Positions 8,852-50,995 of a stretch of 64,000 nt of DNA are shown here, one piece after another. The notes under the pieces were generated by a model that had not been told where the DNA came from, ran no database searches, and worked only from the letters and a program-made list of their open reading frames with translations. How positions within the stretch are numbered: the first letter of the stretch is position 1; each line of letters starts with the position of its first letter. The translations under genes and the position numbers were made by a program. The stretch covers positions 6,113 to 70,112 of the forward strand of contig ONCQ01000003.1 of assembly GCA_900316355.1 (NCBI GenBank). Direction: 5' to 3'. This DNA is from an uncultured Prevotellaceae bacterium. GTDB lineage: Bacteria > Bacteroidota > Bacteroidia > Bacteroidales > Bacteroidaceae.

Positions 8852-9412
8852 TCACCAGCTGAGTGTGCGGGTGCCGTCGGGATTGGCGGTGATGTGCACG
8901 CGGAGCGTGTCATCGGGCAGCAGGTCCTCGATGAGTTCGGGCCATTCGATGAGGCACAGGTGGCCGCTGTAGAGGTAGTCCTCGAAGCCCATGTCATAGG
9001 CCTCCTCGATGCGCTTGATGCGATAGAAATCGAAGTGATAAATAGATGAATGCTCTTTGCGTTCGTCATTGACCTTCGGTCGAGCCTGCTCACGCTCGGG
9101 AAAGTTCAAGCAAGCTTGACTCTCCTCTCGCTTAATCGCAGCCTTCGTCATTCGTAACTCATCATTCGTCATTCGTAACTTGTCATTCACAGCGTATTCG
9201 TTGACGATGGCGAAGGTGGGGGAGGTGACCGGTTCGGTGACCCCCAGTTCGCGGCAAAGGGCTGCGATGAAGGTGGTCTTGCCGGCACCCATGGTGCCGT
9301 AGAAGGCAATGATGCGGCGGTCGCCTAAATTGGCGCGGAACTCACGGGCGGCTGCATCCAGCGCGTCTTCCGTGAAGGTGATGGAGGGTTTATTTTCTGT
9401 GGGTGAGGTCAT
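8852..9412 (-). CDS. tsaE: tRNA threonylcarbamoyladenosine biosynthesis protein TsaE, carrying an in-frame ~110-bp repeat-element insertion
   Basis: P-loop GTMGAGKTTF and the HFDFYR motif. About 43 extra residues lie between VNEY and IYHFDFYR, encoded by the repeat at 9056-9190. Confidence 0.8.
   Translation of the reverse strand: MTSPTENKPSITFTEDALDAAAREFRANLGDRRIIAFYGTMGAGKTTFIAALCRELGVTEPVTSPTFAIVNEYAVNDKLRMTNDELRMTKAAIKREESQACLNFPEREQARPKVNDERKEHSSIYHFDFYRIKRIEEAYDMGFEDYLYSGHLCLIEWPELIEDLLPDDTLRVHITANPDGTRTLSW
9056..9190. repeat. Repeat element inside tsaE coding sequence: a 76-bp core plus a CATTCGTAAC-type tandem array
   Basis: The core at 9071-9146 is 76/76 identical to 31113-31188. 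It is flanked by TTCGTCATT direct repeats. Confidence 0.85.
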
Positions 9413-9508: not shown

Positions 9509-11143
9509 TCAACCTCTCTTCCTCGGCGTGAGTTCCACCAGGGGAATCAGCATTTCCTCCATGGAGATGCCGCCGTGCTGGAAGGTGTCGCGGTAGTAGG
9601 AGACGTAGTAGTTGTAGTTGTTGGGGTAGGCGAAGAAGCTGTCTCCGCGGGCGAAGATGTAGCGCGTGGATAGGTTGGGGGAGGGCAGCAGCGCGCGCTG
9701 GGGATTAGTGATCTCGAAGACTTCCTTGGGGTTGTAGTCGAGGTTCTTGCCGAGCTTGTAGCGCAGGTTGGTGTTGGTGTTCTTGTCGCCCTTGACACGC
9801 ACGGGGGACTGACAGCGGATACTGCCGTGGTCGGTGGTCAGGATGATGCGGTAGTCGGAGGTGGCGAGGGCGCGGAAGAGGTCTGCGACGGCGCTGTGGC
9901 GGAACCAGCTGAGGGTGATGCTGCGGTAGGCGGCCTCGTTGCTGGCCAGCTCGCGCACCATGCGGCTCTCTGTGCGAGCGTGGCTGAGCATGTCGATGAA
10001 GTTGAGGACGCAGACATTGACATCGTATTTCTCCATCTGCGGCAACTTCTGCACGAGGCGCTCGGCGGCAGCAGAGTCGTTGACCTTGTTGTAGGTGAAG
10101 GTGTGTTGGCGGCGGTAGCGCTTGAAGAGGGTCTGTATGAGAGGCGCCTCGTTGAGGTTCTTGCCCTCCTCGCTGTCCTCATCGACCCAAAGGTCAGGGA
10201 ACATCTCGGCGATGATGTTAGGCATGAGGCCCGAGAAGATGGCGTTGCGCGCATACTGCGTGGCAGTGGGCAGGATAGAGCAGTAGAGAGCCTCGTCGAT
10301 ATGGAAGAGGTCGGCAATCTCGTTCATGAGGATGCGCCACTGGTCGTAGCGGAAGTTGTCGATGACGATGAGGAACACCTTCTCGCCGCTGTCCAGGAGG
10401 GGGAAGACGCGGCGCTTGAAGATGTCGGGGCTCATGATGGGCGGGCGCCCGGGCATCTCGGCATCGTTGATCCAGTCGAGGTAGTTACGCTCGATGAAGC
10501 GGGAGAACTGGTGGTTGGCCTCCTGCTTCTGCATGGCCAGCATCTCCTTCATGCCGCTGTCGGTCTCGGAGAGCTGCAGCTCCCAGGCCACGAGGCGGCG
10601 ATAGACCTCCATCCAGTCCTCGATGCTGCGGGCCTCGTCGATGAGCATGCCCATCTTGCCGAAGTCCTGCTGGTAGGCGGTCTGTGTCTGTTCGGTGACG
10701 ATTTCGCGCTGATGGATGTTCTTCTTCAGCGAGAGCAGTATCTGCGTGGGGTTGACGGGTTTGATGAGGTAGTCGGCAATCTTGCTGCCTATGGCCTGAT
10801 CCATGATGTTCTCCTCCTCGCTCTTGGTGACCATCACCACGGGTGTGGTGGGCGTCACCTCCTTGATGCGCTGCAGTGTCTCGAGTCCGCTGAGGCCGGG
10901 CATGTTCTCATCGAGGAGGATGAGGTCGTAGGTCTTCTCGCGGCAGCGGTCGATGGCGTCGAAGCCATTGGTGACGGTATCGACGGCATAGCCCTTCTTT
11001 TCCAGAAAGAGGATATGAGCCTTCAGCAGCTCTATCTCATCGTCGATCCAAAGTAAAGAAGCTATGGCAGACCCGGCAGACCCACCCCCGACCCCTCCCG
11101 TGAGGGAGGGGAGAGGCTGGCGCGATGTAGTTTTATTGGACAT
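9509..11143 (-). CDS. porX: Type IX secretion response regulator PorX (CheY receiver plus PglZ/alkaline-phosphatase-like domain)
   Basis: LWIDDEIELLKAHILFLEKKGY receiver N-terminus with a PglZ-like C-terminal domain. The first ~28 codons, including the ATG, are encoded by the palindromic repeat element. Confidence 0.75.
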   Translation of the reverse strand: MSNKTTSRQPLPSLTGGVGGGSAGSAIASLLWIDDEIELLKAHILFLEKKGYAVDTVTNGFDAIDRCREKTYDLILLDENMPGLSGLETLQRIKEVTPTTPVVMVTKSEEENIMDQAIGSKIADYLIKPVNPTQILLSLKKNIHQREIVTEQTQTAYQQDFGKMGMLIDEARSIEDWMEVYRRLVAWELQLSETDSGMKEMLAMQKQEANHQFSRFIERNYLDWINDAEMPGRPPIMSPDIFKRRVFPLLDSGEKVFLIVIDNFRYDQWRILMNEIADLFHIDEALYCSILPTATQYARNAIFSGLMPNIIAEMFPDLWVDEDSEEGKNLNEAPLIQTLFKRYRRQHTFTYNKVNDSAAAERLVQKLPQMEKYDVNVCVLNFIDMLSHARTESRMVRELASNEAAYRSITLSWFRHSAVADLFRALATSDYRIILTTDHGSIRCQSPVRVKGDKNTNTNLRYKLGKNLDYNPKEVFEITNPQRALLPSPNLSTRYIFARGDSFFAYPNNYNYYVSYYRDTFQHGGISMEEMLIPLVELTPRKRG

Positions 11144-11280
11144 AAGATTCTTCGTTATCTCGTTATTCCGTTATTTCGTTATCTCGTTATTTCGTTATTC
11201 CGTTATTTCGACTCCCCCTCTCCGCAGGCTCTCCCCTCCCTCACGGGAGGGGTTGGGGGTGGGTCTAATACATCCAATCT
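11064..11280. repeat. Large palindromic element: ~46-bp inverted arms (GACCCACCCCCGACCCCTCCCGTGAGGGAGGGGAG...) around a CGTTATTTCG tandem array
   Basis: The left arm (11075-11125) and right arm (11221-11268) are reverse complements. The tandem array spans 11148-11215. Confidence 0.85.
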
Positions 11281-14225
11281 TCATCATCATCCGCTTCTTC
11301 CTCTTCTTCCACCTCTTCTTCCTCCTCACTGCTACTCTGCTGGGTGGCGTTTTCCTGGCCGACGGGCACATCATCGATGTCCTTGGGCATGTCGGTGGGC
11401 TCGTCGAGGATGAGGTCCTTGGGCACTTCGAGGGGTGAGAGTTCGGCATCGAAGAACTCGGCGTAGTCGTCGTAGCTGTAGCGCGTGCCCAGCAGCTTCA
11501 GGTTAGCCTCGCTGATGAGGATGGCGCGGATGCCCTCCAGGCGCTCGCGCATGTGGGCGTTGCCATAGAGTTGCTGGGCGTAGGCGTGGACCTCGTCATA
11601 GGTCTGGAAGCCCGTGACGCGCAGCTGGCTGATGGTGCCTGCGGGCACTATCTCGATGTCGAAGTTGCGGGCCATGAAGGAGGTGAAGTTGAAGCGTGCC
11701 ACCTCATAGAGCAGCTGGTCCTCGTCGAGTTCGCCGGTGGGGTAGGCGAGCACGAAGACATAAGGCACCAGCGGGTCAGCGATGAGGCTGTCCTTCGCTG
11801 CTGCGCCGCCCTCCTCGCTATCGACGGCTGTGCGTCGGCTCCAGATGCTGCTGGCATCCCATTTGTCGGTCGTCAGCAGGCGGCCCTCCTGGACACCTTT
11901 CACGAAGGCCTGTGCCAGCTCGGCAATCTCATCCTTGGAGTATTTCTCTATCACGACCTTCAGCTCGGCCAGGAAGGAGTCGCGGTGGCCTGTGTAGAGC
12001 TGTGTCATGGCGTGGATGAACAGGAACTTAGCGCGATGTGCGCCGTCCTCGAAGGTGGTAGTGCTCTCCTCGAAGTTGTCGTTGACAATCCAGTAGTGAC
12101 CCTCCTTATAGGCGTCGTAGGTCTGGGCATAAAGCGTGTCCTCGAGGTGGCGCCCGAACTGTGCCAGCTCCAGATAGCGGGGATTGGTGACGGTCTTGGT
12201 GTGCTCGCTATCGGGGAAGGAGTCGCGCAGGAGTGTCAAATAGCTGTCCATGGCCTCGTCATCGCCGCGCCGCATGGCCAGCAGGAAGAGGTGGTAGTAG
12301 ATGTCGTCCATGTGCTCGAAGTCGGGGAAATCCTTGACCACGCGGTTCAGGGTCTTGCCGGCGAGCGGGAAGTTGCCGATCTTGTCCATCTCCAGCACGC
12401 CGCCGTGGTAGAGGCCGTCGCACAGGAGCTGGTTGGAGGCTGCCAGCTGCTCCTCGGTGAAGGGAATCTGTTTGAGGTAGTATTCGCGGTGGTGCGGGTC
12501 GTTGGCGAGCGAGTCTTTCAGGCGTTGTTCCTCCTCGTCGTAGTCGCCCGCGCCGCCCATACCTTCGCCGAGCGCTGCCAGACTGTCCTCGGCGGCATAG
12601 TCGTAGCCCGTGTCGCTGTCGCCGCTGCTGTTGGCGCTCATGCCTTGCTTGTCGCTGATGCGCCAGTTGTCCTCGTTCGGACGCGTGCCCCATCGGCGCT
12701 GGAACGCCTGCTTGCCCTGCAGCACCGTCTGTGCATTGTAGAAATAGAAGGTGGCCGTCTGCGAGCCGCGCCGCACGGCACCCGCCTGGTTGTTGTTCGT
12801 GGCGGCGCCAGTGCCCGTGGTTGTTGTGCCCGCACCTGCTGCGCCGCCCTGTGCCTGCTCGAACTCCTTCTTCTCCTGCTCCTTCTCTTTCTTCTTGAGT
12901 TCGTCGATGACGCGGTCGATGGCTGCCAGGTACTCTTTCTCCGGCAGCTTGGCCAGCGCCTGGAGGCTGTCCTGCAGCTTCACGGCCGAGAGATGGGGCT
13001 CCACCTCGGTGAGCACCTTGCTGCGATGCTCCACCTCCTTGTAGTCCTTGTTCTCCTTGTCCATCAGCGACACCAGCTCGTTGTAGCAGGCGGTGGCGTC
13101 GATATAGTTCTCGCGCTCCCAGTAGAGTTCGCCCAGATGTTGCAGCACGACGGCCTTGGCGAAGCCGTTCTGCGTGCTCTCCTCGATGCCTTTCTCCCAG
13201 GCATAGATGGTGCTCATCGTGTCGCGGCTGGCCAGATAGATGTTGCCGATGGCGTAGTAGATACGGTCGAGATAGTTGGCATTGTTGGGGTTCTTGGACA
13301 TGCGGCGCAGCTTGCGTATCATCGCCTTGCCCTGCCCGTCGGCCATCACCTCGGTCTGCAGGATGCGCGCATTGAAGGCCAGCTCGTAGGGCGGGTTCAG
13401 GCGTGTGCATTTGCGCAGAGCCTTGTACGCCAGCTGCTTGTCGCCCGCCTGCTGATGGAGTTGTCCCAGGAGGTAGTAGAGGCGTGCACGCTGCAGCTTG
13501 CTGCGTGTGTGCTTGATGGTGGCGGTGAGGGGTTCCAGCGCTTCCTGTAGCTGTCCTGTGGCGATGTAGTAGGCGGCGCGCGATGCCGTCGTCTCACGTT
13601 CTCCGCGCTCCGAGATGCTGTCGCGCTGTATCTTGTTGAAGACATCCTCGGCATCGTAGGGCCAGTCCAGCAGCACATAGCAGCGTGCCAGCTTGGCGCG
13701 TGCCACACTGGCCACCTCAGGCTGTCCGCTGTAGAGGCGCACGATGTAGTTGTAGCTGGCCGCAGCCTCGATGAAATCGCCCGTTTGGAACTGTGCGTCC
13801 GCCATCATCAGCCATGCGCGATAGAGGTAGGGGTTGAACTCCTTGCGGTTGAAGTAGGCCTTCTGCTTATCCGTCATGCGGCTCGACGGCTTCTTGGGCT
13901 TGCGCTTGATGCTGTGTTTCTTGATGGCCTTCTGGCTCTTCTCGATGGCTGTCTCGAAGTTGCCCTTACCCATCGCTGCCGTCTTCTTGTCGGCCACGAT
14001 ATACATGGGTAGCAGCTCCGTGTAGTTGTCGGTGTGCCCTTTCTCCTGTGCCTCCACGCCTTCGAGGAAGGCCACGCGGCCGTTGTAGAGCGTGTTGAAA
14101 TGGGCGGTGGTGCTGTGGTAGAAGCGCGTCATCGCCGTGTTCTTCTTGGTGGAGCACGACAATAGCAGCCCTACAGACAGCAGGACTGAGCAGATAATAT
14201 AATATGTACGCGCGCGATGTCTCAC
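11265..14225 (-). CDS. Large TPR-repeat lipoprotein with an acidic C-terminus; possibly a T9SS/gliding-associated PorW/SprE-like protein
   Basis: Lipobox LLSCS and multiple TPR-like helical repeats. It sits immediately upstream of porX. The PorW assignment is inference from context. The stop codon is read as CTA at 11266-11268. Confidence 0.6.
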   Translation of the reverse strand: MRHRARTYYIICSVLLSVGLLLSCSTKKNTAMTRFYHSTTAHFNTLYNGRVAFLEGVEAQEKGHTDNYTELLPMYIVADKKTAAMGKGNFETAIEKSQKAIKKHSIKRKPKKPSSRMTDKQKAYFNRKEFNPYLYRAWLMMADAQFQTGDFIEAAASYNYIVRLYSGQPEVASVARAKLARCYVLLDWPYDAEDVFNKIQRDSISERGERETTASRAAYYIATGQLQEALEPLTATIKHTRSKLQRARLYYLLGQLHQQAGDKQLAYKALRKCTRLNPPYELAFNARILQTEVMADGQGKAMIRKLRRMSKNPNNANYLDRIYYAIGNIYLASRDTMSTIYAWEKGIEESTQNGFAKAVVLQHLGELYWERENYIDATACYNELVSLMDKENKDYKEVEHRSKVLTEVEPHLSAVKLQDSLQALAKLPEKEYLAAIDRVIDELKKKEKEQEKKEFEQAQGGAAGAGTTTTGTGAATNNNQAGAVRRGSQTATFYFYNAQTVLQGKQAFQRRWGTRPNEDNWRISDKQGMSANSSGDSDTGYDYAAEDSLAALGEGMGGAGDYDEEEQRLKDSLANDPHHREYYLKQIPFTEEQLAASNQLLCDGLYHGGVLEMDKIGNFPLAGKTLNRVVKDFPDFEHMDDIYYHLFLLAMRRGDDEAMDSYLTLLRDSFPDSEHTKTVTNPRYLELAQFGRHLEDTLYAQTYDAYKEGHYWIVNDNFEESTTTFEDGAHRAKFLFIHAMTQLYTGHRDSFLAELKVVIEKYSKDEIAELAQAFVKGVQEGRLLTTDKWDASSIWSRRTAVDSEEGGAAAKDSLIADPLVPYVFVLAYPTGELDEDQLLYEVARFNFTSFMARNFDIEIVPAGTISQLRVTGFQTYDEVHAYAQQLYGNAHMRERLEGIRAILISEANLKLLGTRYSYDDYAEFFDAELSPLEVPKDLILDEPTDMPKDIDDVPVGQENATQQSSSEEEEEVEEEEEADDDEDWMY

Positions 14226-14259: not shown

Positions 14260-14637
14260 TTATTCGGCACCCTCAAAATTCATTAAAAGCATAGCTTCGT
14301 CGCGCAATGCCTCCGGCAGTTCTATGCCCCGCAGTTGCAGGCTGCGAAGCCAGTCGCCTACCTCGCGGCGTAGGGTGGTGTAGAGCACATTGCGGAACTC
14401 CTCTGTCTCCTCCTCGCTGTAGTCGTCGCCGCGCCGCCCGCGGAAGCGGTCCAGCTCCTCATCGTCGAAGTATTCGATGGGCTCCTCTGCCGCCTTCATC
14501 AGCAGCTCTTTCTCGCAGACGGCATGCTGGCCGCAGCAGATGAAGGAAGACCCTTCCTCAGAAGACCCACCCCCCTGCCCCTCCCTTGTAGGGAGGGGAG
14601 TAGTCACTTTTGCTTGATCTGTATTACTCCTTTTCAT
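14260..14637 (-). CDS. Small acidic hypothetical protein; the true start is probably internal (MKAAEEP...)
   Basis: The ORF lies between aroA and the TPR gene on the same strand. Its N-terminal ~35 codons are encoded by a palindromic repeat. Confidence 0.3.
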   Translation of the reverse strand: MKRSNTDQAKVTTPLPTREGQGGGSSEEGSSFICCGQHAVCEKELLMKAAEEPIEYFDDEELDRFRGRRGDDYSEEETEEFRNVLYTTLRREVGDWLRSLQLRGIELPEALRDEAMLLMNFEGAE

Positions 14638-14690
14638 TTCTTGCAGGTATTTACTCCCCGCCCTACAAGGGAGGGGCAGGGAGGAGGGTC
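14564..14690. repeat. Palindromic element with CCCCTCCCTTGTAGGGAGGGG arms and a ~43-bp spacer
   Basis: Arms at 14564-14607 and 14651-14690 are reverse complements. Confidence 0.8.
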
Positions 14691-15997
14691 TTTTTCACCC
14701 CCGCCTTCTCCAACTCTTCCCAGAACGTGGGGTAGGACTTGGTGACTACTTCGGGGTTGTTGATGTCGATGCTTCCCAACACGAGGGCGGCGGGCGCAAA
14801 GGCCATCGCCATGCGGTGGTCCTCATAGGTGTCGATGGCGGTGCCGGGCAGCGGTTGCAGATAGGGAATCTCGCCGTAGGGCTGTGCCTCTGGTCCGGCC
14901 CATTGCATCACGCTGTCGCCTTCCACCTCCACGCGCACGCCCAGCTTTGCCAGCTCTGTCTGCAGCGCCGCGATGCGGTCGGTCTCCTTGATGCGGAGGC
15001 TTTGGAGTCCGGTGAAGCGGAACGCGATGCCCTTCATGGCGCAGGTCACCACCAGCGTCTGCGCCAAGTCGGGTGTCTTCGTGAAGTCCCACTCGAATCG
15101 TTTCGGCAGGCGGCCCCGTCGCATGAGCATCGCCCGCGGTTCATCATCGTCCGTCATCGGAGGCATACAGAACGAGGCCACCGACAGCTTCTTAAACATC
15201 TCCTGCACGGCGCTGTCACCCTGCAGGCTCTCACTGAAGAGTCCCTTGAGCTGGAAGACATTGTTGCGCTCGTCGCTGAGCAGGAGCAGTTCAAACCAAT
15301 AGGACGCGGCGCTCCAGTCCGCCTCTACCAGATAAGGCGTTGGCCTATAGGGTTGTGGCTCCACGGCGATGGTGCTCGGTCCCCTCCATTGTGCCTTGGC
15401 ACCATATTCTTTCATCATGGACAGCGTCATGTCAATGTAAGGACGGCTCACGATCTCGCCTTTCAGGCGGAGCGTCAGCCCCTCCTGTAGCTTCGGTGCG
15501 ATCATCAGCAGGGCTGAGATATACTGCGAGCTGACATCTCCCGCCAGCTCCACCTGGCCACCTCGCAGAACGGTGCCTGTGATGCGCAGGGGCGGGAAGC
15601 CCTCCTCGCCGACGTATTCTATCTCTGCCCCCAGGCTCCGCAACGCCTCCACCAGCACGCCGATGGGCCGGTGTTGCATACGTTCCGTTCCTGTGATGGT
15701 ATGCGTGCCGGGCGTCACCGCCAGCAACGCCGTTAGGAAGCGCATCGCCGTGCCGGCAGCTTTGACGTTTACGACAGGTGGCAACATACAGTCACTCCCC
15801 TCGCGCCGCTCCATTTCCAGCAGGAACAGCGCTTCCATCATCACGGTGGTGTCGTCGCAGTCCGACACGTTCCTCAGCAGACCCGGAATCCCGCCGCTCA
15901 GCGCGTTCAGCACCAGTGCTCGGTTGCTGATGCTCTTGCTGGCGGGCAGGCGCAAATCGCCGGTCAGATGTGTAGGTTTAGAGATTCGATAACTCAT
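14663..15997 (-). CDS. aroA: 3-phosphoshikimate 1-carboxyvinyltransferase (EPSP synthase)
   Basis: Starts MSYRISKPTHLTGDLRLPASKSISNRALVL. The longer ORF N-terminus (TRFELATPR...) is read-through across the tRNA-Pro gene and was rejected. Confidence 0.85.
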   Translation of the reverse strand: MSYRISKPTHLTGDLRLPASKSISNRALVLNALSGGIPGLLRNVSDCDDTTVMMEALFLLEMERREGSDCMLPPVVNVKAAGTAMRFLTALLAVTPGTHTITGTERMQHRPIGVLVEALRSLGAEIEYVGEEGFPPLRITGTVLRGGQVELAGDVSSQYISALLMIAPKLQEGLTLRLKGEIVSRPYIDMTLSMMKEYGAKAQWRGPSTIAVEPQPYRPTPYLVEADWSAASYWFELLLLSDERNNVFQLKGLFSESLQGDSAVQEMFKKLSVASFCMPPMTDDDEPRAMLMRRGRLPKRFEWDFTKTPDLAQTLVVTCAMKGIAFRFTGLQSLRIKETDRIAALQTELAKLGVRVEVEGDSVMQWAGPEAQPYGEIPYLQPLPGTAIDTYEDHRMAMAFAPAALVLGSIDINNPEVVTKSYPTFWEELEKAGVKKTLLPAPPL

Positions 15998-23589: not shown

Positions 23590-25389
23590 TTGAACTCCTG
23601 TTCTGCTTTTGATTGGAAAGGGCGCTATGAGGCGTTGCACGACTACTTCCCCAGCACGTACTACACACCCGTGATAGGCATCACGGGTAACTTCGGTGAG
23701 AAGGGTTGCGAGCTGGCAGAGGGCTACTATGAGAGCATCCTGCGGGCGGGGGCCACCCCCGTGGTGCTGCCGCCCACAGAAGATGCCGATGCGCTGTGCA
23801 CGATGCTCGACAGTATCGATGCCCTGGTGCTCTCGGGCGGCGGCGATATCAACCCGCTCTTCGCCGGCGAGGAACCTGTGCCACAGCTCCATAGCATCAA
23901 TCCCAAGCGCGACCTGTGCGAGCTGCTGCTCGTGCGCCTGGCCTACGACCGCCAGCTGCCCATGCTCGGCATCTGCCGCGGCATACAGGTGTTGGCCACC
24001 GCCCTCGACGGCAGCGTGTGGCAGGACATCGCCTCGCAGTTCAATCCCCCCGCGCTCATCAAGCACAGTCAGGATCTGGAGCGCAGCCGTGCCTCGCACA
24101 CCGTGGCGGTGGCCGAAGGGTCGCTGCTACAGCACATTATGGGTGTTGATACACTGTCTGTCAACAGCTTCCATCACCAGGCTGTGCGCGAGGCTGGCCC
24201 CCACCTGCGCGTCTGCGCCACAGCACCCGACGGCGTCATCGAAGCCGTGGAATCCACCGAGCATAAGAGCATCATTGGCGTGCAGTGGCACCCCGAATGC
24301 TTCTGTCTGGGTGGCGATGCGCGCATGATGCCGCTCTTCCGATGGCTGGCCGACGAGGCGGCCAACTACCGCGAGGCGCGCCGCATACACAGCCGCATCA
24401 TCACCCTCGACAGCCATTGCGACACGCCGATGTTCTTCGATCAGGACATCCACTTCGACCAGCGCGACCCCAAGATACTCGTGGACTTGCATAAGATGCG
24501 CGAGGGAGGTTTGGATGCCAGCACCATGGTGGCCTACATCCCCCAGGGACCGCTCACTGATGAAGGGCGCGCCGCTGCCACCGCCTATGCCGACAGCCAG
24601 CTCTCCCGCGTGGAGAAGATGGTCGAGGCGAATGCGGCAGCCGTGGGCATGGCCTATGATGTCAAGGACCTCCATCGCCTGAAGGCTGAGGGGCGCAAGG
24701 CCATCATGCTCGGCATCGAGAACGGCTATGCCATCGGTCGCGACATCCATCTGTTGGAGCGTTTCCAGAAGAAGCACGGCATCGTCTATATGACGCTCTG
24801 CCACAACGGCAACAACGATATCTGCGGTTCCGCACGTCCGCGTGAGGGTGAGCAGCTGATGGGCGTCACAGACTTCGGTGCCGACGTCATTCGTGAGATG
24901 AACCGCCTCGGCATCCTCGTGGACCTCTCCCACGGCAGCGAGCGCAGCTTCTACGATGCCCTGGACATCAGCACCAAGCCCATCGTGTGCTCCCACTCCT
25001 CATGCCGCGCCCTCTGCGACCATCCCCGCAACCTCACCGATGACCAGCTGCGCGCCCTCGCCGCCAAAGGCGGTGTGGCACAGGTCACCTTCTACAGCGG
25101 TTTCCTGCGCACCGACGGGCAGGCCAGTATCCTGGATGCAGTGGCCCATCTCAACCACATGGTGCAGGTGATGGGCATCGAGCATGTGGGCATCGGCACT
25201 GACTTCGACGGCGACGGCGGTGTCCCCGGCCTCGCCTCTGCCGCAGAACTCATCAACTTCACCCGCCGCCTGTTGCGCGAGCACTACAGCGAGGCGGACC
25301 TCCGCCTTATCTGGGGCGGCAACTGGATGCGCTGTGTAAGTGAAATGCCCCCGAGCCCCCTAAAGGGGAGCGTAGGGAGTGAAAAGTGA
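23590..25389 (+). CDS. Fusion protein: class-I glutamine amidotransferase-like (C26, PuuD-like) domain plus M19 membrane dipeptidase domain
   Basis: GATase catalytic region (GICRGIQVL...WHPE) followed by a renal-dipeptidase-family region (LCHNGNNDI...DLSHGSE...GIGTDFDGDGG). The last ~15 residues (EMPPSPLKGSVGSEK*) are encoded by a repeat element. Confidence 0.7.
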   Translation: MNSCSAFDWKGRYEALHDYFPSTYYTPVIGITGNFGEKGCELAEGYYESILRAGATPVVLPPTEDADALCTMLDSIDALVLSGGGDINPLFAGEEPVPQLHSINPKRDLCELLLVRLAYDRQLPMLGICRGIQVLATALDGSVWQDIASQFNPPALIKHSQDLERSRASHTVAVAEGSLLQHIMGVDTLSVNSFHHQAVREAGPHLRVCATAPDGVIEAVESTEHKSIIGVQWHPECFCLGGDARMMPLFRWLADEAANYREARRIHSRIITLDSHCDTPMFFDQDIHFDQRDPKILVDLHKMREGGLDASTMVAYIPQGPLTDEGRAAATAYADSQLSRVEKMVEANAAAVGMAYDVKDLHRLKAEGRKAIMLGIENGYAIGRDIHLLERFQKKHGIVYMTLCHNGNNDICGSARPREGEQLMGVTDFGADVIREMNRLGILVDLSHGSERSFYDALDISTKPIVCSHSSCRALCDHPRNLTDDQLRALAAKGGVAQVTFYSGFLRTDGQASILDAVAHLNHMVQVMGIEHVGIGTDFDGDGGVPGLASAAELINFTRRLLREHYSEADLRLIWGGNWMRCVSEMPPSPLKGSVGSEK

Positions 25390-25440
25390 ATAATGAAGAA
25401 TGAAAAATGAAAAGTGAAGAATGAAAAGTGAAAAATTAGA
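25342..25440. repeat. Palindromic core GAAATGCCCCCGAGCCCCCTAAAGGGGAGCGTAGGGAG plus a GAAAAGTGAA-type tandem array
   Basis: The core recurs at 41170, 45623 and 31230 (rc). The tandem array spans 25380-25440. Confidence 0.85.
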
Positions 25441-26485
25441 AAATCTAATGAATCAGCAGCAACAACAAGAAGATTATCTTTGGAAGAGAACAGCGAAAAG
25501 TATCGTTTATTTTTCACTCTTCACGCTTTCATTTTTCATCTGCTTTGCCTCTTGCGCCGGCAAGACCAAGCGCGCAGAGACCGCCGACACCATCGCCCTC
25601 TCGCCTGCGCCCACCTTCATCGCCGACTCCGCGATGGCCTACATCCAGGCGCAGTGTGCCTTCGGGCCGCGCGTGCCGGGCTCCGCAGCCCACGAGGCAT
25701 GTGCCGACTGGCTGGTGCAGCAGTTCCGAGCCCTCGGTGCCGAGGTGAGCGAGGTGCGCGCCACCCTCAATGGCTACGACGGCCAGCCCATGGCCTGCCG
25801 CAACATACAGGCGCGCATCAACCCCGACGCCACAGACCGCGTCCTCATCACCGCCCACTGGGACAGCCGCGCGTGGGCCGACAACGATGCCGATGCTGCC
25901 AACCACCACACCCCCGTCATGGCTGCCAACGACGGCGCTTCCGGCGTGGCTGTGATGCTGGAGATGGCGCGCGTCATACAGCAGACGGGACTCTCCTACG
26001 GCGTTGATTTCGTGTGCTTCGACCTCGAAGACCAAGGCACGCCGCAGTGGGCTGACAGCGACGGCGAGAGCTACTGGTGTCTCGGCTCCACTTACTGGGC
26101 ACAGGAGGCTGCCGTCGTGGGCTACCGTGCACGCTACGGCGTCAACCTCGACATGGTGGGCGGCCGCGGTGCGCGCTTCCTCATGGAGAGCTTCTCGATG
26201 CAGTATGGCAAGCCCATCGTGGGCATGGTGTGGCATCTGGCCATACAGCTGGGCTTCGGGCAGTATTTCATCGCCAAGGAAGGCGGCTACATCACCGATG
26301 ACCACCTGCCTGTGAACCGCATCGCCCACATCCCCTGCATCGACATCATCCCCTGCGTCGAGAATGCCGCCTCGTCGTTCGGCGACACCTGGCACACCAC
26401 CGCCGACACCCCCGAGAACATCGACCCCGGAGCGCTGCGTGCCGTGGGGCAGACGCTGTTGCAGCTGCTGTATAATGATAATTAA
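25421..26485 (+). CDS. M28-family peptidase / glutaminyl-peptide cyclotransferase-like lipoprotein
   Basis: Lipobox FASCAG. Zn-ligand regions HWDSRAWADND and DGASGVAVMLE match the M28/QC fold. The start codon choice is uncertain (25421 or 25448). Confidence 0.6.
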   Translation: MKSEKLENLMNQQQQQEDYLWKRTAKSIVYFSLFTLSFFICFASCAGKTKRAETADTIALSPAPTFIADSAMAYIQAQCAFGPRVPGSAAHEACADWLVQQFRALGAEVSEVRATLNGYDGQPMACRNIQARINPDATDRVLITAHWDSRAWADNDADAANHHTPVMAANDGASGVAVMLEMARVIQQTGLSYGVDFVCFDLEDQGTPQWADSDGESYWCLGSTYWAQEAAVVGYRARYGVNLDMVGGRGARFLMESFSMQYGKPIVGMVWHLAIQLGFGQYFIAKEGGYITDDHLPVNRIAHIPCIDIIPCVENAASSFGDTWHTTADTPENIDPGALRAVGQTLLQLLYNDN

Positions 26486-26486
26486 A

Positions 26487-26529
26487 GACCCACCCCAACC
26501 CCTCCCTATGGGAGGGGACCTCGGTCCTC
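26487..26529. repeat. CCCTCCC-TAT-GGGAGGG palindromic element
   Basis: GACCCACCCCAACCCCTCCCTATGGGAGGGGACC, the same family as 11075 and 14564. Confidence 0.7.
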
Positions 26530-26564
26530 TATATATGATTTGAAACAACAAATTGTTAATCAAT

Positions 26565-27077
26565 ATGCAAGATTATAATGATACTACGCGCCAGTCCTCC
26601 CCCTCTTCGACAGAGAAGGGGGTGGGGCGTGAGTCCATCGACTCCCTCCAAGACGAGATTATCGAGGAATTCAACGACTTCGATGACTGGATGGACAAAT
26701 ACCAGCTCCTCATCGACCTCGGCAACGACCAACAGCCGCTGCCCGAGAGCGCCAAGACGGAGCAGAACCTCATCGACGGCTGTCAGAGCCGCGTATGGCT
26801 CACAGCCACGCTGACGTCCGACGGCCTCGTGCACTTCGAGGCGGAGAGCGACGCCCTCATCGTGAAGGGCATCGTCACGCTCCTCATCCGCGTCCTCAGC
26901 GACCACACGCCGCAGGAGATTCTCGATGCCGACCTCTACTTCATCGAGCGCATCGGCCTCCGCGAACACCTCTCACCCACCCGCAGCAATGGCCTCCTCG
27001 CCATGCTCAAGCAGATGAAAATGTATGCCCTCGTTTACAACGAAGTGAAAAATGATGGAGTGAAAAGTGAAAAATGA
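26565..27077 (+). CDS. sufE: SufE-like cysteine desulfuration / Fe-S assembly protein
   Basis: SufE domain with the conserved Cys in QLIDGCQSRVWL. The C-terminal ~12 residues are encoded by a tandem-repeat array. Confidence 0.7.
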   Translation: MQDYNDTTRQSSPSSTEKGVGRESIDSLQDEIIEEFNDFDDWMDKYQLLIDLGNDQQPLPESAKTEQNLIDGCQSRVWLTATLTSDGLVHFEAESDALIVKGIVTLLIRVLSDHTPQEILDADLYFIERIGLREHLSPTRSNGLLAMLKQMKMYALVYNEVKNDGVKSEK

Positions 27078-27094
27078 AAAGTGAATAATGAAAG

Positions 27095-31010: not shown

Positions 31011-31019
31011 GCCTTTGGC

Positions 31020-31300
31020 TGTTGGCTTTTGGCTTTTGGCTTTTGGCCTTTGGCACTCATCATTAGTAATTTTTATTTTTCACTTATCACTTATCACTCA
31101 TCACTCATCATTGACCTTCGGTCGAGCCTGCTCACGCTCGGGAAAGTTCAAGCAAGCTTGACTCTCCTCTCGCTTAATCGCAGCCTTCATCACTCGTCAT
31201 TCGTCATTCATCATTATTATTTTTCACTTTTCCCTCCCTACGCTCCCCTTTAGGGGGCTCGGGGGCATTTGAACTCTTGAACTCTTGAACTTTTTGAACT
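31020..31300. repeat. Composite repeat cluster: GGCTTTTGGC and CACTTATCA tandem arrays, the 76-bp core identical to the tsaE insert, an inverted PPSPLKG core, and a TTGAACTCTTGAAC array
   Basis: Direct reading. 31113-31188 equals 9071-9146. 31230-31270 is the reverse complement of the 25342 core. Confidence 0.85.
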
Positions 31301-34133: not shown

Positions 34134-34190
34134 CAAAGCTGAACTATTAAACTTTTGAACCCTTGAACTATTAAACTCAGCAAACATATA

Positions 34191-34661: not shown

Positions 34662-34755
34662 AGGCCAGAGGCCTGATTCATGGTTCAGGATTCAGGATTC
34701 ATGGTTCAGGATTCAGGATTCATGGTTTCAAGTTTCATGATTCGTCATTAACTTC

Positions 34756-37804: not shown

Positions 37805-38521
37805 ATGAAGATAGCACTCATCGGCTACGGTAAAATGGGCCACATGATAGAGCAGATAGCTCTGGAGCGCGGACACGACATCGTGTGCCGCATCGACATC
37901 GATAACCCTCAGGACTTCGAGAGCGCGGCGTTCCGCAGCGCTGACGTGGCGATAGAGTTCACGGCTCCCACGGTGGCCTACGGCAACGTGCAGCGGGCGT
38001 TTGCGGCGGGCGTGAAGGTGGTGTCGGGCAGCACGGGGTGGTTTGCACAGCATGAGGCTGAGGTGCGCCGGCAGTGTGAGGCGGAGGGCAGGACGCTGTT
38101 CTGGGCCTCGAACTTCTCGGTCGGCGTGGCCATCTTCGGCGCCGTGAACCGCTACCTGGCACGCATCATGAATGGGTTCCCACAGTATGACGTGGAGATG
38201 GAGGAGACGCACCATGTGCATAAGCTGGACCACCCGAGCGGCACGGCGATCACGCTGGCAGAGGATATCGTCAGCGAACTGGACCGCAAGGAGGCGTGGG
38301 CCGAGGATACGACAGATCCGAAGCTGCTGCGCATCGACAACATCCGACGGGGTGAGGTGCCGGGGATTCACACGGTGCGCTACGACAGCGAGGCGGACCT
38401 GATAACAATCACGCATGATGCGCACTCGCGCAAGGGCTTCGCACTGGGGGCAGTGCTGGCGGCGGAATATACGGCCGAGCACAGCGGACTGCTGAGCATG
38501 GGGGATTTGTTTTCATTTTAA
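37805..38521 (+). CDS. dapB: 4-hydroxy-tetrahydrodipicolinate reductase
   Basis: MKIALIGYGKMG NAD-binding N-terminus and the EETHHVHKLDHPSGTA catalytic region. Confidence 0.85.
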   Translation: MKIALIGYGKMGHMIEQIALERGHDIVCRIDIDNPQDFESAAFRSADVAIEFTAPTVAYGNVQRAFAAGVKVVSGSTGWFAQHEAEVRRQCEAEGRTLFWASNFSVGVAIFGAVNRYLARIMNGFPQYDVEMEETHHVHKLDHPSGTAITLAEDIVSELDRKEAWAEDTTDPKLLRIDNIRRGEVPGIHTVRYDSEADLITITHDAHSRKGFALGAVLAAEYTAEHSGLLSMGDLFSF

Positions 38522-38670
38522 GGAGTTAAGAAGTTAAGGAGTTAAGAAGTTAAGGAGTTAAGGAGTTAAGACGAATGCTTTGCCACTGATAATACTTTGC
38601 ACGAGTAATGTCTTAACTTCTGCCCGAAGGGCGAGCGAAGCGATAACTCCTTGAACTCCTTAACTCCCCC
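38520..38670. repeat. GGAGTTAAG / TTGAACTCCTTAAC tandem arrays flanking a GCCCGAAGGGC hairpin
   Basis: Direct reading of the dapB-lepB intergenic region. Confidence 0.7.
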
Positions 38671-40149: not shown

Positions 40150-40235
40150 GGCCCCCTGTGGTCCCCCAAGGGGGACAATTGAGAATTGAAAATTGAAAAT
40201 TGAGAATTGGGGAATGGTAAGAATTGAGGAATCGT
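40150..40235. repeat. GGCCCCCTGTGGTCCCCCAAGGGGGAC palindrome plus a TTGAGAATTGAAAATTG tandem array
   Basis: Direct reading. It overlaps the ORF-track N-terminus of ung. Confidence 0.7.
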
Positions 40236-40873: not shown

Positions 40874-41565
40874 ACCAGATTCCTATCTTAGAAGTCGGCG
40901 GTGTGCTGATCAGCACTCAGATCCTCACCGAACGTTTCTGCTGCGACCTCGAAGCCTGCGGCGGCGCCTGCTGCGTGGAGGGCGATGCTGGCGCACCGGT
41001 CACGCTGGATGAAGTCGGCGAGATAGAGGCGGCGCTGGATGCGGCGTGGCCGTATATGTCGGCCACGGCACAGAGCGTGGTGGATAAACAGGGCGTTGCC
41101 TACACGGATGTGGAGGGCGACTTGGTCACGAGTATCGTGAACGGCAAAGATTGTGTGTTTACGTTCTACGAAATGCCCCCGAGCCCCCTAAAGGGGAGCG
41201 TAAATAGCCAAGAGCCAAGAGCTAAGAGCCAAGCGCCAAGTGCCAACAGCCAAGAGCCAGCAGCCAAAACCTGTTGTCTGTGTGCGCTGGAGGCGGCATG
41301 CAGGGCGGGGAAGAGTAGGTTCATGAAGCCCATCTCATGCGCGCTCTATCCCATCCGCGAGAAGCGTTTCGGCGGTGGCCTGGTGGGCCTCAACTATCAC
41401 CGCTGGGCCATTTGCGAGGGAGCGCGCAAGCGGGGACAGGAGCTGGACCTGCCGCTCTACCGTTTCCTGCGCGAGCCGCTGATACGGCGCTTCGGCGAGG
41501 CGTGGTACAAAGAGTTGTGTGAGGTGGCGGAGGAACTGAAAAGAGCGGAGCGAGACCGCCCATAA
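40867..41565 (+). CDS. Cysteine-rich conserved protein (DUF3109-like) carrying an in-frame repeat-element insertion
   Basis: CCDLEACGGACC...CCLCALE...CALYPIR cysteine pattern. Residues EMPPSPLKGSVNSQEPRAKSQAPSANSQEPAAKT are encoded by the palindromic core plus an AGCCAAGAGCC tandem array. Confidence 0.5.
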   Translation: MVNQIPILEVGGVLISTQILTERFCCDLEACGGACCVEGDAGAPVTLDEVGEIEAALDAAWPYMSATAQSVVDKQGVAYTDVEGDLVTSIVNGKDCVFTFYEMPPSPLKGSVNSQEPRAKSQAPSANSQEPAAKTCCLCALEAACRAGKSRFMKPISCALYPIREKRFGGGLVGLNYHRWAICEGARKRGQELDLPLYRFLREPLIRRFGEAWYKELCEVAEELKRAERDRP

Positions 41566-50924: not shown

Positions 50925-50995
50925 TATAACGGAATTACGGAACTACGGAATTACGGAATTACGGAACTAACGAAATTACGTTATTACGAAAAAGC
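50925..50995. repeat. GGAATTACGGAACTACG tandem array
   Basis: Direct reading, in the intergenic region downstream of the PfkB gene. Confidence 0.7.

Follow-up and report, generated by a model that had tools for sequence, protein, structure and literature searches.

Where does porX begin? This gene encodes the response regulator that controls type IX secretion, and in a 64,000-nucleotide stretch of DNA from an uncultured Prevotellaceae bacterium (GenBank assembly GCA_900316355.1, contig ONCQ01000003.1, positions 6,113 to 70,112; hereafter the window) its open reading frame (ORF) starts inside a palindromic element. A reading made from the letters alone, without database searches (the sequence-only reading), had proposed that this element supplies the porX start codon and N-terminus. 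We consider it probable that the element is a copy of a dispersed palindromic repeat family of Prevotellaceae, situated at a gene junction, and that it supplies the ATG and approximately 25 N-terminal residues of PorX. [quoted passage not shown]

The element between porW and porX

In the window, porX occupies 9509-11143 on the minus strand and encodes 544 residues with a receiver and a PglZ domain (Pfam Response_reg and PglZ). The protein matches the NCBIfam equivalog NF052313 over residues 29-541 with 830 bits, the cut-off being 300, and the solved PorX structure PDB 7PV7 with E = 2e-218 in an alignment that starts at residue 29. The upstream gene, known to the sequence-only reading as a TPR gene, is porW/sprE (11265-14225, minus strand; 986 residues; start GTG at 14225 or ATG at 14132), which encodes the periplasmic TPR lipoprotein of the type IX secretion system (NF052312, 700 bits). 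The palindromic repeat, approximately 190 bp long, is sited between the two genes.

An inverted-repeat search confirmed that two arms flank a tandem array, at 11078-11119 and 11225-11266. Each is 42 nt long, not 46 nt as first given; they are 95% complementary, stand 105 nt apart and form the top-scoring inverted repeat of the window, the runner-up being a second element with arms at 14562-14602 and 14652-14692. Both arms of the porX element contain an 8-bp GC hairpin, CCCCTCCC-N4-GGGAGGGG, at 11092-11111 and 11233-11252, and on the outer side of each lies a C-run, AGACCCACCCCC, on one strand, which is the G-run GGGGGTGGGTCT on the other. In 100 shuffles, no match to this arm-hairpin pattern was expected by chance.

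Read in the sense of the genes, the 5′ arm (11225-11266, minus strand) consists of ACCCACCCCCAA, the hairpin CCCCTCCC-GTGA-GGGAGGGG (11233-11252) and AGAGCCTG. As had been noticed, it overlaps the stop of the upstream gene: the porW stop codon TAG (11265-11267) shares its last two letters, AG, with the outer end of this arm. The AT-rich spacer (11144-11224, minus strand) holds a conserved block, CGGAGAGGGGGAG, then the tandem array, and then GAAGAATCTT directly before the ATG. The array (11151-11210) comprises 7.5 copies of an 8-bp unit, rather than the 10-bp unit described before, and reads TTCGTTAT on the plus strand and GAAATAAC-like on the gene strand; its copy number varies across assemblies (3, 4, 4, 7.5 and about 9). 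The element-borne ATG (11141-11143, minus strand) lies inside the spacer, 24 nt before the 3′ arm. It is followed by a leader at 11120-11140 (codons 2-8, S N K T T S R), so that translation opens MSNKTTSRQPLPSLTGGVGGGSAGSAIASLLWIDDE, and by the 3′ arm (11078-11119, minus strand; hairpin at 11092-11111), which is translated as Q9-S22 (QPLPSLTGGVGGGS). At the outer end of this arm, a 9-bp tandem duplication (GGCAGACCC x2, 11066-11083) encodes extra AGS residues. The 9-bp unit, GGGTCTGCC, is present at porX in one copy in locus L143, in two copies in the window and L083, and in three copies in L146 and P0004. Partial duplications of AGACCCACCCCC are also found beside many other arms, as if the outer G-run ends stuttered.

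The porX ORF runs through the 3′ arm and enters the receiver domain at residue ~29. Neither the window nor L083, L084, L087, L143 or L146 has an ATG, GTG or TTG in frame in the stretch that separates the spacer ATG from this domain. The next porX ATG is M81, within the receiver domain, and the alternative downstream start that would have spoken against the proposal was therefore not found. The predicted N-terminal peptide is MSNKTTSRQPLPSL.. or its Met-cleaved form. AlphaFold2 assigned a predicted local distance difference score below 50 to residues 1-25 (means of 26-27 for the 10-residue blocks of residues 1-20) and placed strand beta-1 from residue 28. The extension of ~25 residues is thus predicted to be disordered, and the added residues are likely to be tolerated.

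To place this N-terminus among its orthologues, we used 80 orthologous loci of GTDB species representatives. In these, PorX almost always starts M-x(3-5)-LLW[VIA]DDE, and the order porW-then-porX is conserved with gaps of just 4-90 nt. The extension is absent from nearly all of them and confined to a few close lineages that have the element or its remains, which bears out the proposal that the element gives porX its start, because no other canonical start is available and distant orthologues lacking the repeat do not share the extension. A protein search found arm-derived extensions in 12 protein clusters with 82-94% identity (for example P0001, MSYNNTSRQPLPSLTGGVGGGSAGSSIASLLW, and P0031, MTNNDILRQPVPSQASGSGGGTTFRLLW). 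None of them has a Met beside LLW, and their length differences are only multiples of three. Intact doublets like that of the window are present at porX in L083 and L084, and one arm has decayed in L087 and L088. In L085 and L089-L092 the 5′ arm is lost and the coding arm is unable to form the hairpin, with ATG and frame kept. In P0044 (L184), the gene caller's start is an internal TTG, and the same in-frame leader lies upstream. An empty site is present in L081 and L082 (9990-10003), where TAT TAA CGACAAAT ATG GAA TAT AAA TTA CTT TGG gives a TAA followed by an 8-nt gap. The PorX of this site, P0007 (94% identical, 519 aa, MEYKLLW), is without the element.

Could the element instead lie wholly in the porX 5′ untranslated region, with translation starting at a non-canonical codon past the 3′ arm (for example ATA, Ile27) and the upstream ORF being accidental? 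The G-rich arms are stop-free in all three frames, and read-through ORFs therefore arise easily. Against such an arrangement stands, besides the missing canonical start between arm and receiver, the conservation of both frame and upstream ATG in the 12 diverged clusters, even where the palindrome has decayed. Moreover, ribosomes of Bacteroidota do not use Shine-Dalgarno sequences, and initiation needs low structure and A-rich upstream sequence (PMC6847099). Because initiation is Shine-Dalgarno-independent and needs an unstructured leader, a start in the AT-rich loop would be usable and a start right behind the GC hairpin, which reaches −31 kcal/mol, would not. A start beyond the arm is very unlikely on these grounds, and the copies at other genes point the same way (see below).

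A repeat family at gene junctions

Related genomes have the complete unit at another junction as well, and we therefore assign the ATG and the leader MSNKTTSRQ to the element itself. The unit between aroA and a small ORF in L081, L082, L083 and L144 has almost the same spacer and 3′ arm as the porX unit of the window. It includes (CGGAATAA)n-CGAAGAATCTT-ATG-TCC-AAT-AAA-ACT-ACA-TCG-CGC, the 21 nt of codons 2-8 being identical to those at porX, and the small ORF opens MSNKTTSRQPLPSLTGGVGGGS, as PorX does in the window. We had also considered 'MSN' as the native PorX N-terminus, since orthologues start MSNG or MTNG, and rejected it because the ATG-TCC-AAT-AAA-ACT-ACA leader and the array are also found at the aroA junction elsewhere.

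The window has its own copy between aroA and the small ORF, at 14562-14692 on the minus strand. It is of a second type (type B), with TACTCCCC inner ends and the loop TTGTA/TACAA, and its arms are 41 nt long and 93% complementary. The aroA C-terminus TLLPAPPL, which follows ..KK at the end of the ORF, is encoded by the 5′ arm (14652-14692), with the aroA stop codon TAG (14663-14665) placed in the hairpin loop. The spacer ATG (14635-14637) is the start of a small Cys-rich ORF of 125 aa (14260-14637, minus strand), and translation of the 3′ arm (14562-14602) gives TTPLPTREGQGGGS. Where relatives lack the element, the small ORF starts M..[FIV][ICV]CCGQHAVCEKELL and overlaps the aroA stop. Because the conserved CCGQHAVCEKELL Cys motif lies upstream of the internal Met, the small ORF must start at the ATG of the element, and the suggestion that the copy at 14564 feeds the N-terminus of a small ORF is thereby upheld.

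A third copy (26485-26636, plus strand) heads sufE, whose ORF extends to 27077. Its 5′ arm (26485-26527) adjoins the TAA of an M28-like peptidase ORF, the ATG (26565-26567) lies in an AT-rich spacer, and a degenerate variant of the 3′ arm (about 26583-26636) is translated as TTRQSSPSSTEKGVGRES at the head of sufE. In this unit the 5′ arm is of the current type and the 3′ arm of the old type. All three copies in the window thus have an in-frame ATG that opens into a long ORF. The sequence-only reading had listed three related palindromes, and two of them belong to the family, namely the copy at 14562-14692 and the palindrome at 26487-26529, which is a true arm (the 5′ arm of the sufE unit). The third, at 40150-40176, was rejected as a member; it is a different hairpin, GTCCCCC-AA-GGGGGAC, that is missed by the arm profile. 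The layout of that region (40150-40215) resembles the upstream half of the element, as the hairpin, which is outside the arm family, stands right after a TAA and is followed by an array of AATTGAA x4.7 and then by the ATG of the next gene (40214).

The full unit, read in the sense of the flanking genes, is about 130-250 bp long and occupies junctions of co-directional genes. It begins with the 5′ arm, AGACCCACCCCC-NN-(CCCCTCCC-loop-GGGAGGGG), continues with an AT-rich spacer of 50-170 nt that often contains a short tandem array, and then has an ATG with 4-10 Asn/Thr/Lys-rich codons and the inverted 3′ arm, (CCCCTCCC-loop-GGGAGGGG)-NN-GGGGGTGGGTCT, which is stop-free on the gene strand. The downstream gene begins at the ATG of the element and reads through the 3′ arm. 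The window contains 6 arms; across the collected loci we counted 80 arms, which form 27 doublets and 26 singlets. In 25 of the 27 doublets, three of which are redundant, the spacer ATG opens an ORF through the 3′ arm of at least 90 codons or to the contig end; two of these 25 ORFs have about 95 codons, at least one of them without a Pfam match. The upstream stop in most doublets lies between a position just before the 5′ arm and the early spacer, often as TAA-AGACCC or in the hairpin loop. Spacers have 31-48% GC compared with 57% for the window and differ between loci. Among 65 distinct arms, the outer ends are AGACCC / GGGTCT, the stems are almost invariant and the loops vary. Arm variants track the genome rather than the locus, and L086 has its own variant at both junctions.

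For a sample independent of the genes concerned, a metagenome scan was anchored only on the inner arm sequence ACATCGCGCCAGCCNNNCCCC, regardless of downstream context. It returned 76 stretches, of which 25 (19 non-redundant) were true copies and the rest chance matches in high-GC contigs. Every true copy (25/25; 19/19 non-redundant) has an in-frame ATG 15-33 nt upstream, and the ORF extends for at least 111 codons or reaches the end of the contig. The 3′ arms lie within ORFs in all 19 sampled copies, and several 5′ arms hold the C-terminus and stop of the upstream gene. According to Pfam, the genes headed by an arm encode FolD, TsaD, HisB, HisC, a GT2 glycosyltransferase, an S4-domain protein and FtsX/MacB permeases; a chromate transporter, an AMP-dependent ligase, an M20 peptidase, an Rnf subunit, Pth, a PfkB kinase, SufE and PorX are further examples. 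The arm is in frame at the N-terminus of at least 16 different gene families, and in the cases checked the Pfam profile starts no more than a few residues from where the leader ends. Judged by these comparisons of sequence, the start codon is a built-in feature of the whole repeat family, which re-heads many genes, a point that goes beyond the sequence-only reading. The family evidently affects many housekeeping genes in gut and rumen Prevotellaceae.

These copies also bear on the idea that the element lies in a 5′ untranslated region. A native ATG is retained after the arm in at least two copies, at tsaE in L001 and at pth in L134, which is what that idea would expect, but 19 of 19 independently sampled copies in frame are difficult to reconcile with accidental read-through.

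Because leaders ending in ..TSRQPLPSLTGGVGGGS recur on many proteins, selection on PorX and the others might have favoured the added peptide itself, which would then serve as an N-terminal tag, for instance a processing site, an interaction motif or a degron. However, one DNA arm is read in at least three frames by different genes, giving the unrelated peptides ..SRQPLPSLTGGVGGGS, ..TTPLPTREGQGGGS and ..PLPSLHGRGWGWV, and because of this the constraint is on the DNA and not on the peptide. The conserved object is the palindromic DNA, which is also present untranslated as the 5′ arm, whereas the peptide decays freely in orthologues and is predicted to be disordered. A search of three leader peptides against NCBIfam found no match to any model at E <= 10, the presence of models for Rickettsia palindromic elements in that release being unconfirmed. 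A selected tag is accordingly highly improbable.

The inverted arms raise a further alternative, namely an inverton, in which the spacer would be turned round by site-specific inversion at the 42-nt arms, taking away or giving back the start codon, and porX would be phase-variable. Inverted repeats around a short segment with an essential signal would suit such a switch. Gut Bacteroidales commonly have invertible promoters and intragenic invertons. The spacer has the same orientation in all eight aligned copies at two junctions, however, the ATG is on the gene strand in the 25 ORF-bearing doublets, with essentially no ORF in the opposite orientation, and many of the fused genes are essential (pth, tsaD, folD, hisB), such that an OFF state would be lethal. 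We rejected this reading on the uniform spacer orientation and regard it as hardly credible.

Several copies show particular arrangements. In L125 (1442-2767), doublets stand at two consecutive junctions of the his operon, before hisC and before hisB, with the near-identical leaders MNNNEDITRQPLPSLTGGVGGGS and MNNNEDTSRQPLPSLTGGVGGGS. In L129 (9127-9290), three 3′ arms follow each other in direct tandem with a 54-nt period within a single leader ORF (..TSRQPLPSLTGGVGGGSVSSRQPLPSLTGGVGGGSVSS..) that leads into an FtsX-type permease. The leader precedes a lipoprotein-like signal peptide in L152 (about 9300, minus strand), and an arm lies just past the signal peptide of a TolC-like OEP protein in L132 (4383-5792, minus strand); exported proteins are therefore affected as well.

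RNA structure, translation and spread

The minimum-free-energy structure of the porX element as RNA is a single long stem whose spacer loop contains the AUG (−110.3 kcal/mol, z = −9.0 against shuffles); individual arm hairpins range from −20 to −31 kcal/mol. The gene strand of the 3′ arm contains a G-quadruplex motif, GGGAGGGGTCGGGGGTGGG (11081-11099). An enrichment of such motifs in the window was considered and rejected, as 7 were observed compared with 8.4 in shuffles; five of the seven are arms, and the motif remains a property of the arm only. A scan of 10900-11500 identified no promoter-like site and no terminator at the arms.

Given such structure, the main role of the doublet could be cis-regulation, at the level of RNA or DNA, and it would then be more than tolerated selfish DNA. 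Either the 42-bp stem with the AUG in its loop or a switch between hairpin and G-quadruplex in the 3′ arm would tie porX translation, or cleavage by RNase III, to the translation of porW. Besides the fold and the share of arms among the G-quadruplex motifs, the distance of 0 nt between the porW stop and the arm, the almost invariant stems with variable loops and the derived changes that the arms of L086 have in common are consistent with a device of this kind, and the lack of a promoter-like site in the spacer fits co-transcription of porW and porX. REP and Correia hairpins are generally known to alter mRNA stability and translation (PMC10969869). Because decayed copies (L085, L089-L092), which lack both the 5′ arm and a folding coding arm, still serve an intact porX, the structure is nevertheless not needed by porX. 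In addition, the fused genes form a housekeeping miscellany with no common regulatory logic, the arm variants follow the genome rather than the gene, and the G-quadruplex motifs of the window are not enriched. We therefore judge a mainly regulatory role to be unlikely.

Under the favoured explanation, a copy of the repeat at the junction, the unit takes the place of the sequence between porW and porX: neither a gap of the native size (4-90 nt) nor a native start codon for porX is left. The porW ORF ends at the 5′ arm and that of porX opens at 11143, so that PorX would carry ~25 extra residues before receiver strand beta-1; translation of the extension is probable. The element may persist because of its own unstructured, start-bearing leader. 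The leader and the stop-free arms would let it sit between tightly packed genes without inactivating them. A single-strand transposase of the HUH type may spread or refresh the copies, or arms may convert one another ectopically; the arm variants that track the genome, together with the mixed sufE unit, suggest ectopic gene conversion or repeated re-insertion. More tentatively, and with the balance somewhat against it, the family might constitute a new kind of repeat, a self-contained gene-junction cassette (stop context, unstructured AT-rich leader, ATG and stop-free arm) that re-heads dozens of core genes, essential ones included, in a Prevotellaceae lineage. Such a junction cassette would be adapted to the Shine-Dalgarno-independent translation of Bacteroidota.

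Several observations weigh against a mobile repeat that brings its own start. Mobility is inferred only from dispersed copies and from empty compared with filled sites. No transposase was found in the 1.9 Mb of collected loci by tblastn with YafM-like and IS200-like probes, which is a weak test. No autonomous parent emerged among the collected loci, in which arm pairs 0.4-5 kb apart enclose only housekeeping genes. Target-site duplications are lacking; 20 of 23 doublets are without a direct repeat of at least 2 bp, and the other three have one of only 2-3 bp. Because of this lack, a HUH/RAYT-like mechanism fits better than a DDE transposon. Native ATGs are absent beside the 3′ arm in almost every case, which simple random insertion with later selection does not fully account for. 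The 42-bp GC-rich stem, or a G-quadruplex 8 codons past the AUG, might hinder translation. Furthermore, every relative is a metagenome-assembled genome (MAG) or a metagenome contig. On a neighbour-joining PorX tree, the presence of the extension is patchy, with the element-free P0007 nested in an extension-bearing clade and other extension-bearing lineages scattered among those with a short N-terminus. Judged by this pattern, gains, losses or replacement took place more than once. The history may comprise one gain with losses, several gains, or recombination, and the position of P0007 would imply loss of the element or recombinational replacement of the junction.

Known repeats and the arm in other phyla

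The closest functional analogue is provided by the Rickettsia palindromic elements (RPE; Ogata et al. 2000, reviewed in PMC10969869). They, too, are short palindromes that lie in frame in many unrelated housekeeping genes, add a tolerated peptide and are constrained at the DNA level (PMC10969869). In contrast to the family described here, RPEs are about 100-150 bp long and are inserted internally into the ORFs of their host, an alphaproteobacterial endosymbiont (PMC10969869). Supply of a start codon or a position at gene boundaries is not reported for them, whereas our unit spans the junction, ending one gene and starting the next. The sequences are unrelated, and the host phylum differs.

With repetitive extragenic palindromic (REP) sequences, REPINs and BIMEs, the family shares GC-rich imperfect palindromes of 35-42 nt that form singlets and inverted doublets with a long hairpin (PMC3116915, PMC3337134, PMC3733652). 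Location between operon genes beside stop codons, genome-specific variants and the lack of a target-site duplication are also common to both (PMC3116915, PMC3337134, PMC3733652), and G-tract-rich REPs prone to tetraplex formation are known (PMC4690160). REPs and REPINs go together with RAYT (Y1 HUH) transposases (PMC3116915, PMC3337134, PMC3733652), encoded in the genome concerned by a single-copy gene that REPs usually flank. REPIN-RAYT systems are undocumented for Bacteroidota, the host phylum of our family, in the literature searched. The GTAG/CGTC tag at the foot of the REP hairpin (PMC3733652) is missing from our arms; among the 65 distinct arms, GT[ACGT]AG occurs only in the hairpin loop. 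Unlike REPs and REPINs, the family is translated and start-bearing instead of extragenic, and its spacers are long, AT-rich and unconserved between loci.

Terminal inverted repeats (the 42-nt arms) on a unit of about 130-250 bp without a transposase gene are reminiscent of MITEs, although a derivative of a DDE transposon should have a target-site duplication. Correia elements of Neisseria are similar in their size of about 100-200 bp, terminal inverted repeats, position beside genes, co-transcription, long hairpins and the changed expression of neighbours (PMC10969869). They duplicate a TA target, carry a promoter and IHF sites and are non-coding (PMC10969869), whereas neither a duplication nor, at porX, a promoter-like site was found for our family; they fuse with ORFs occasionally (PMC10969869), and here fusion is systematic. 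The BrickBuilt MITE of Porphyromonas gingivalis (PMC4596501) also belongs to Bacteroidota and has small inverted-repeat ends around a tandem array. BrickBuilt, however, has a minisatellite of 23 nt, always lies between genes (49-591 nt away from coding sequences) and shows promoter activity in both directions (PMC4596501); its sequence is unrelated, and it is not fused to genes.

Database searches returned little for the family as a whole. Rfam gave nothing at gathering thresholds; when E-values were relaxed, it listed long-hairpin miRNA models alone, which are spurious and score far below their cut-offs. Limited full-text literature searches, with peptide and arm strings and for REPs or MITEs of Prevotella and sphingomonads, found no description of it. 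Searching a tripled leader against a collection of 5.8 billion proteins yielded 7 weak matches among 597 word-sharing candidates and no usable estimate of prevalence, as a single leader is too short.

The arm motif extends beyond Prevotellaceae. Its 36-nt form is also present in IMG/VR contigs, some with 69-73% GC, and in replicons of Sphingomonas, Sphingobium and Novosphingobium at about 90% identity, for example as TAACAGGAGCCCACCCCCAACCCCTCCCGCTTGCGGGAGGGGAGCGAG directly past a stop codon. In Sphingomonadaceae and in the viral collection, the arm consists of the C-run and CCCCTCCC-loop-GGGAGGGG, with GGGAGGGG-NN-GGGGG-T-GGG on the G strand. Such copies are located in L182 (about 1500-1540), L183 (about 1495-1545), L173-L177, L179 and L180, with tight doublets in L173. 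An arm common to two phyla may reflect horizontal transfer or a shared partner, and the identity of about 90% in Sphingomonadaceae may point to widely distributed machinery that recognises or copies the arm. The motif is thus a lead to a candidate partner enzyme.

Because the start codon and N-terminus of PorX come from a repeat in this lineage, gene models, expression constructs and N-terminus comparisons of this regulator of type IX secretion must consider the element. The internal TTG called as the start in one assembly illustrates how the family bears on automatic start-codon calling in Prevotellaceae MAGs. A start codon of their own would be a route by which selfish or semi-domesticated palindromes rewrite the ends of core proteins non-lethally, and it bears on the evolution of operon junctions in bacteria that do not use Shine-Dalgarno sequences and on the origin of disordered N-terminal tails.

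Tandem arrays like that of the porX spacer (11151-11210) are widespread in the window. AT-rich arrays with a period of 7-8, 4-10 copies and distinct units fill many gaps between genes, at 25380-25436, 27043-27093, 31014-31054, 34142-34177, 34675-34743, 38518-38570, 40177-40209, 41206-41267 and 50929-50988, and several of them occupy the space from one stop codon straight to the start that follows. The gene tsaE (8852-9412, minus strand) encodes 186 aa compared with 136-144 aa in most relatives (167 in one), and its match to the Pfam TsaE profile falls into two parts. A 21-bp/7-bp tandem array (TTCGTCA-like, 9144-9188) lies in the additional in-frame segment, and short arrays therefore seem to have entered a coding region too.

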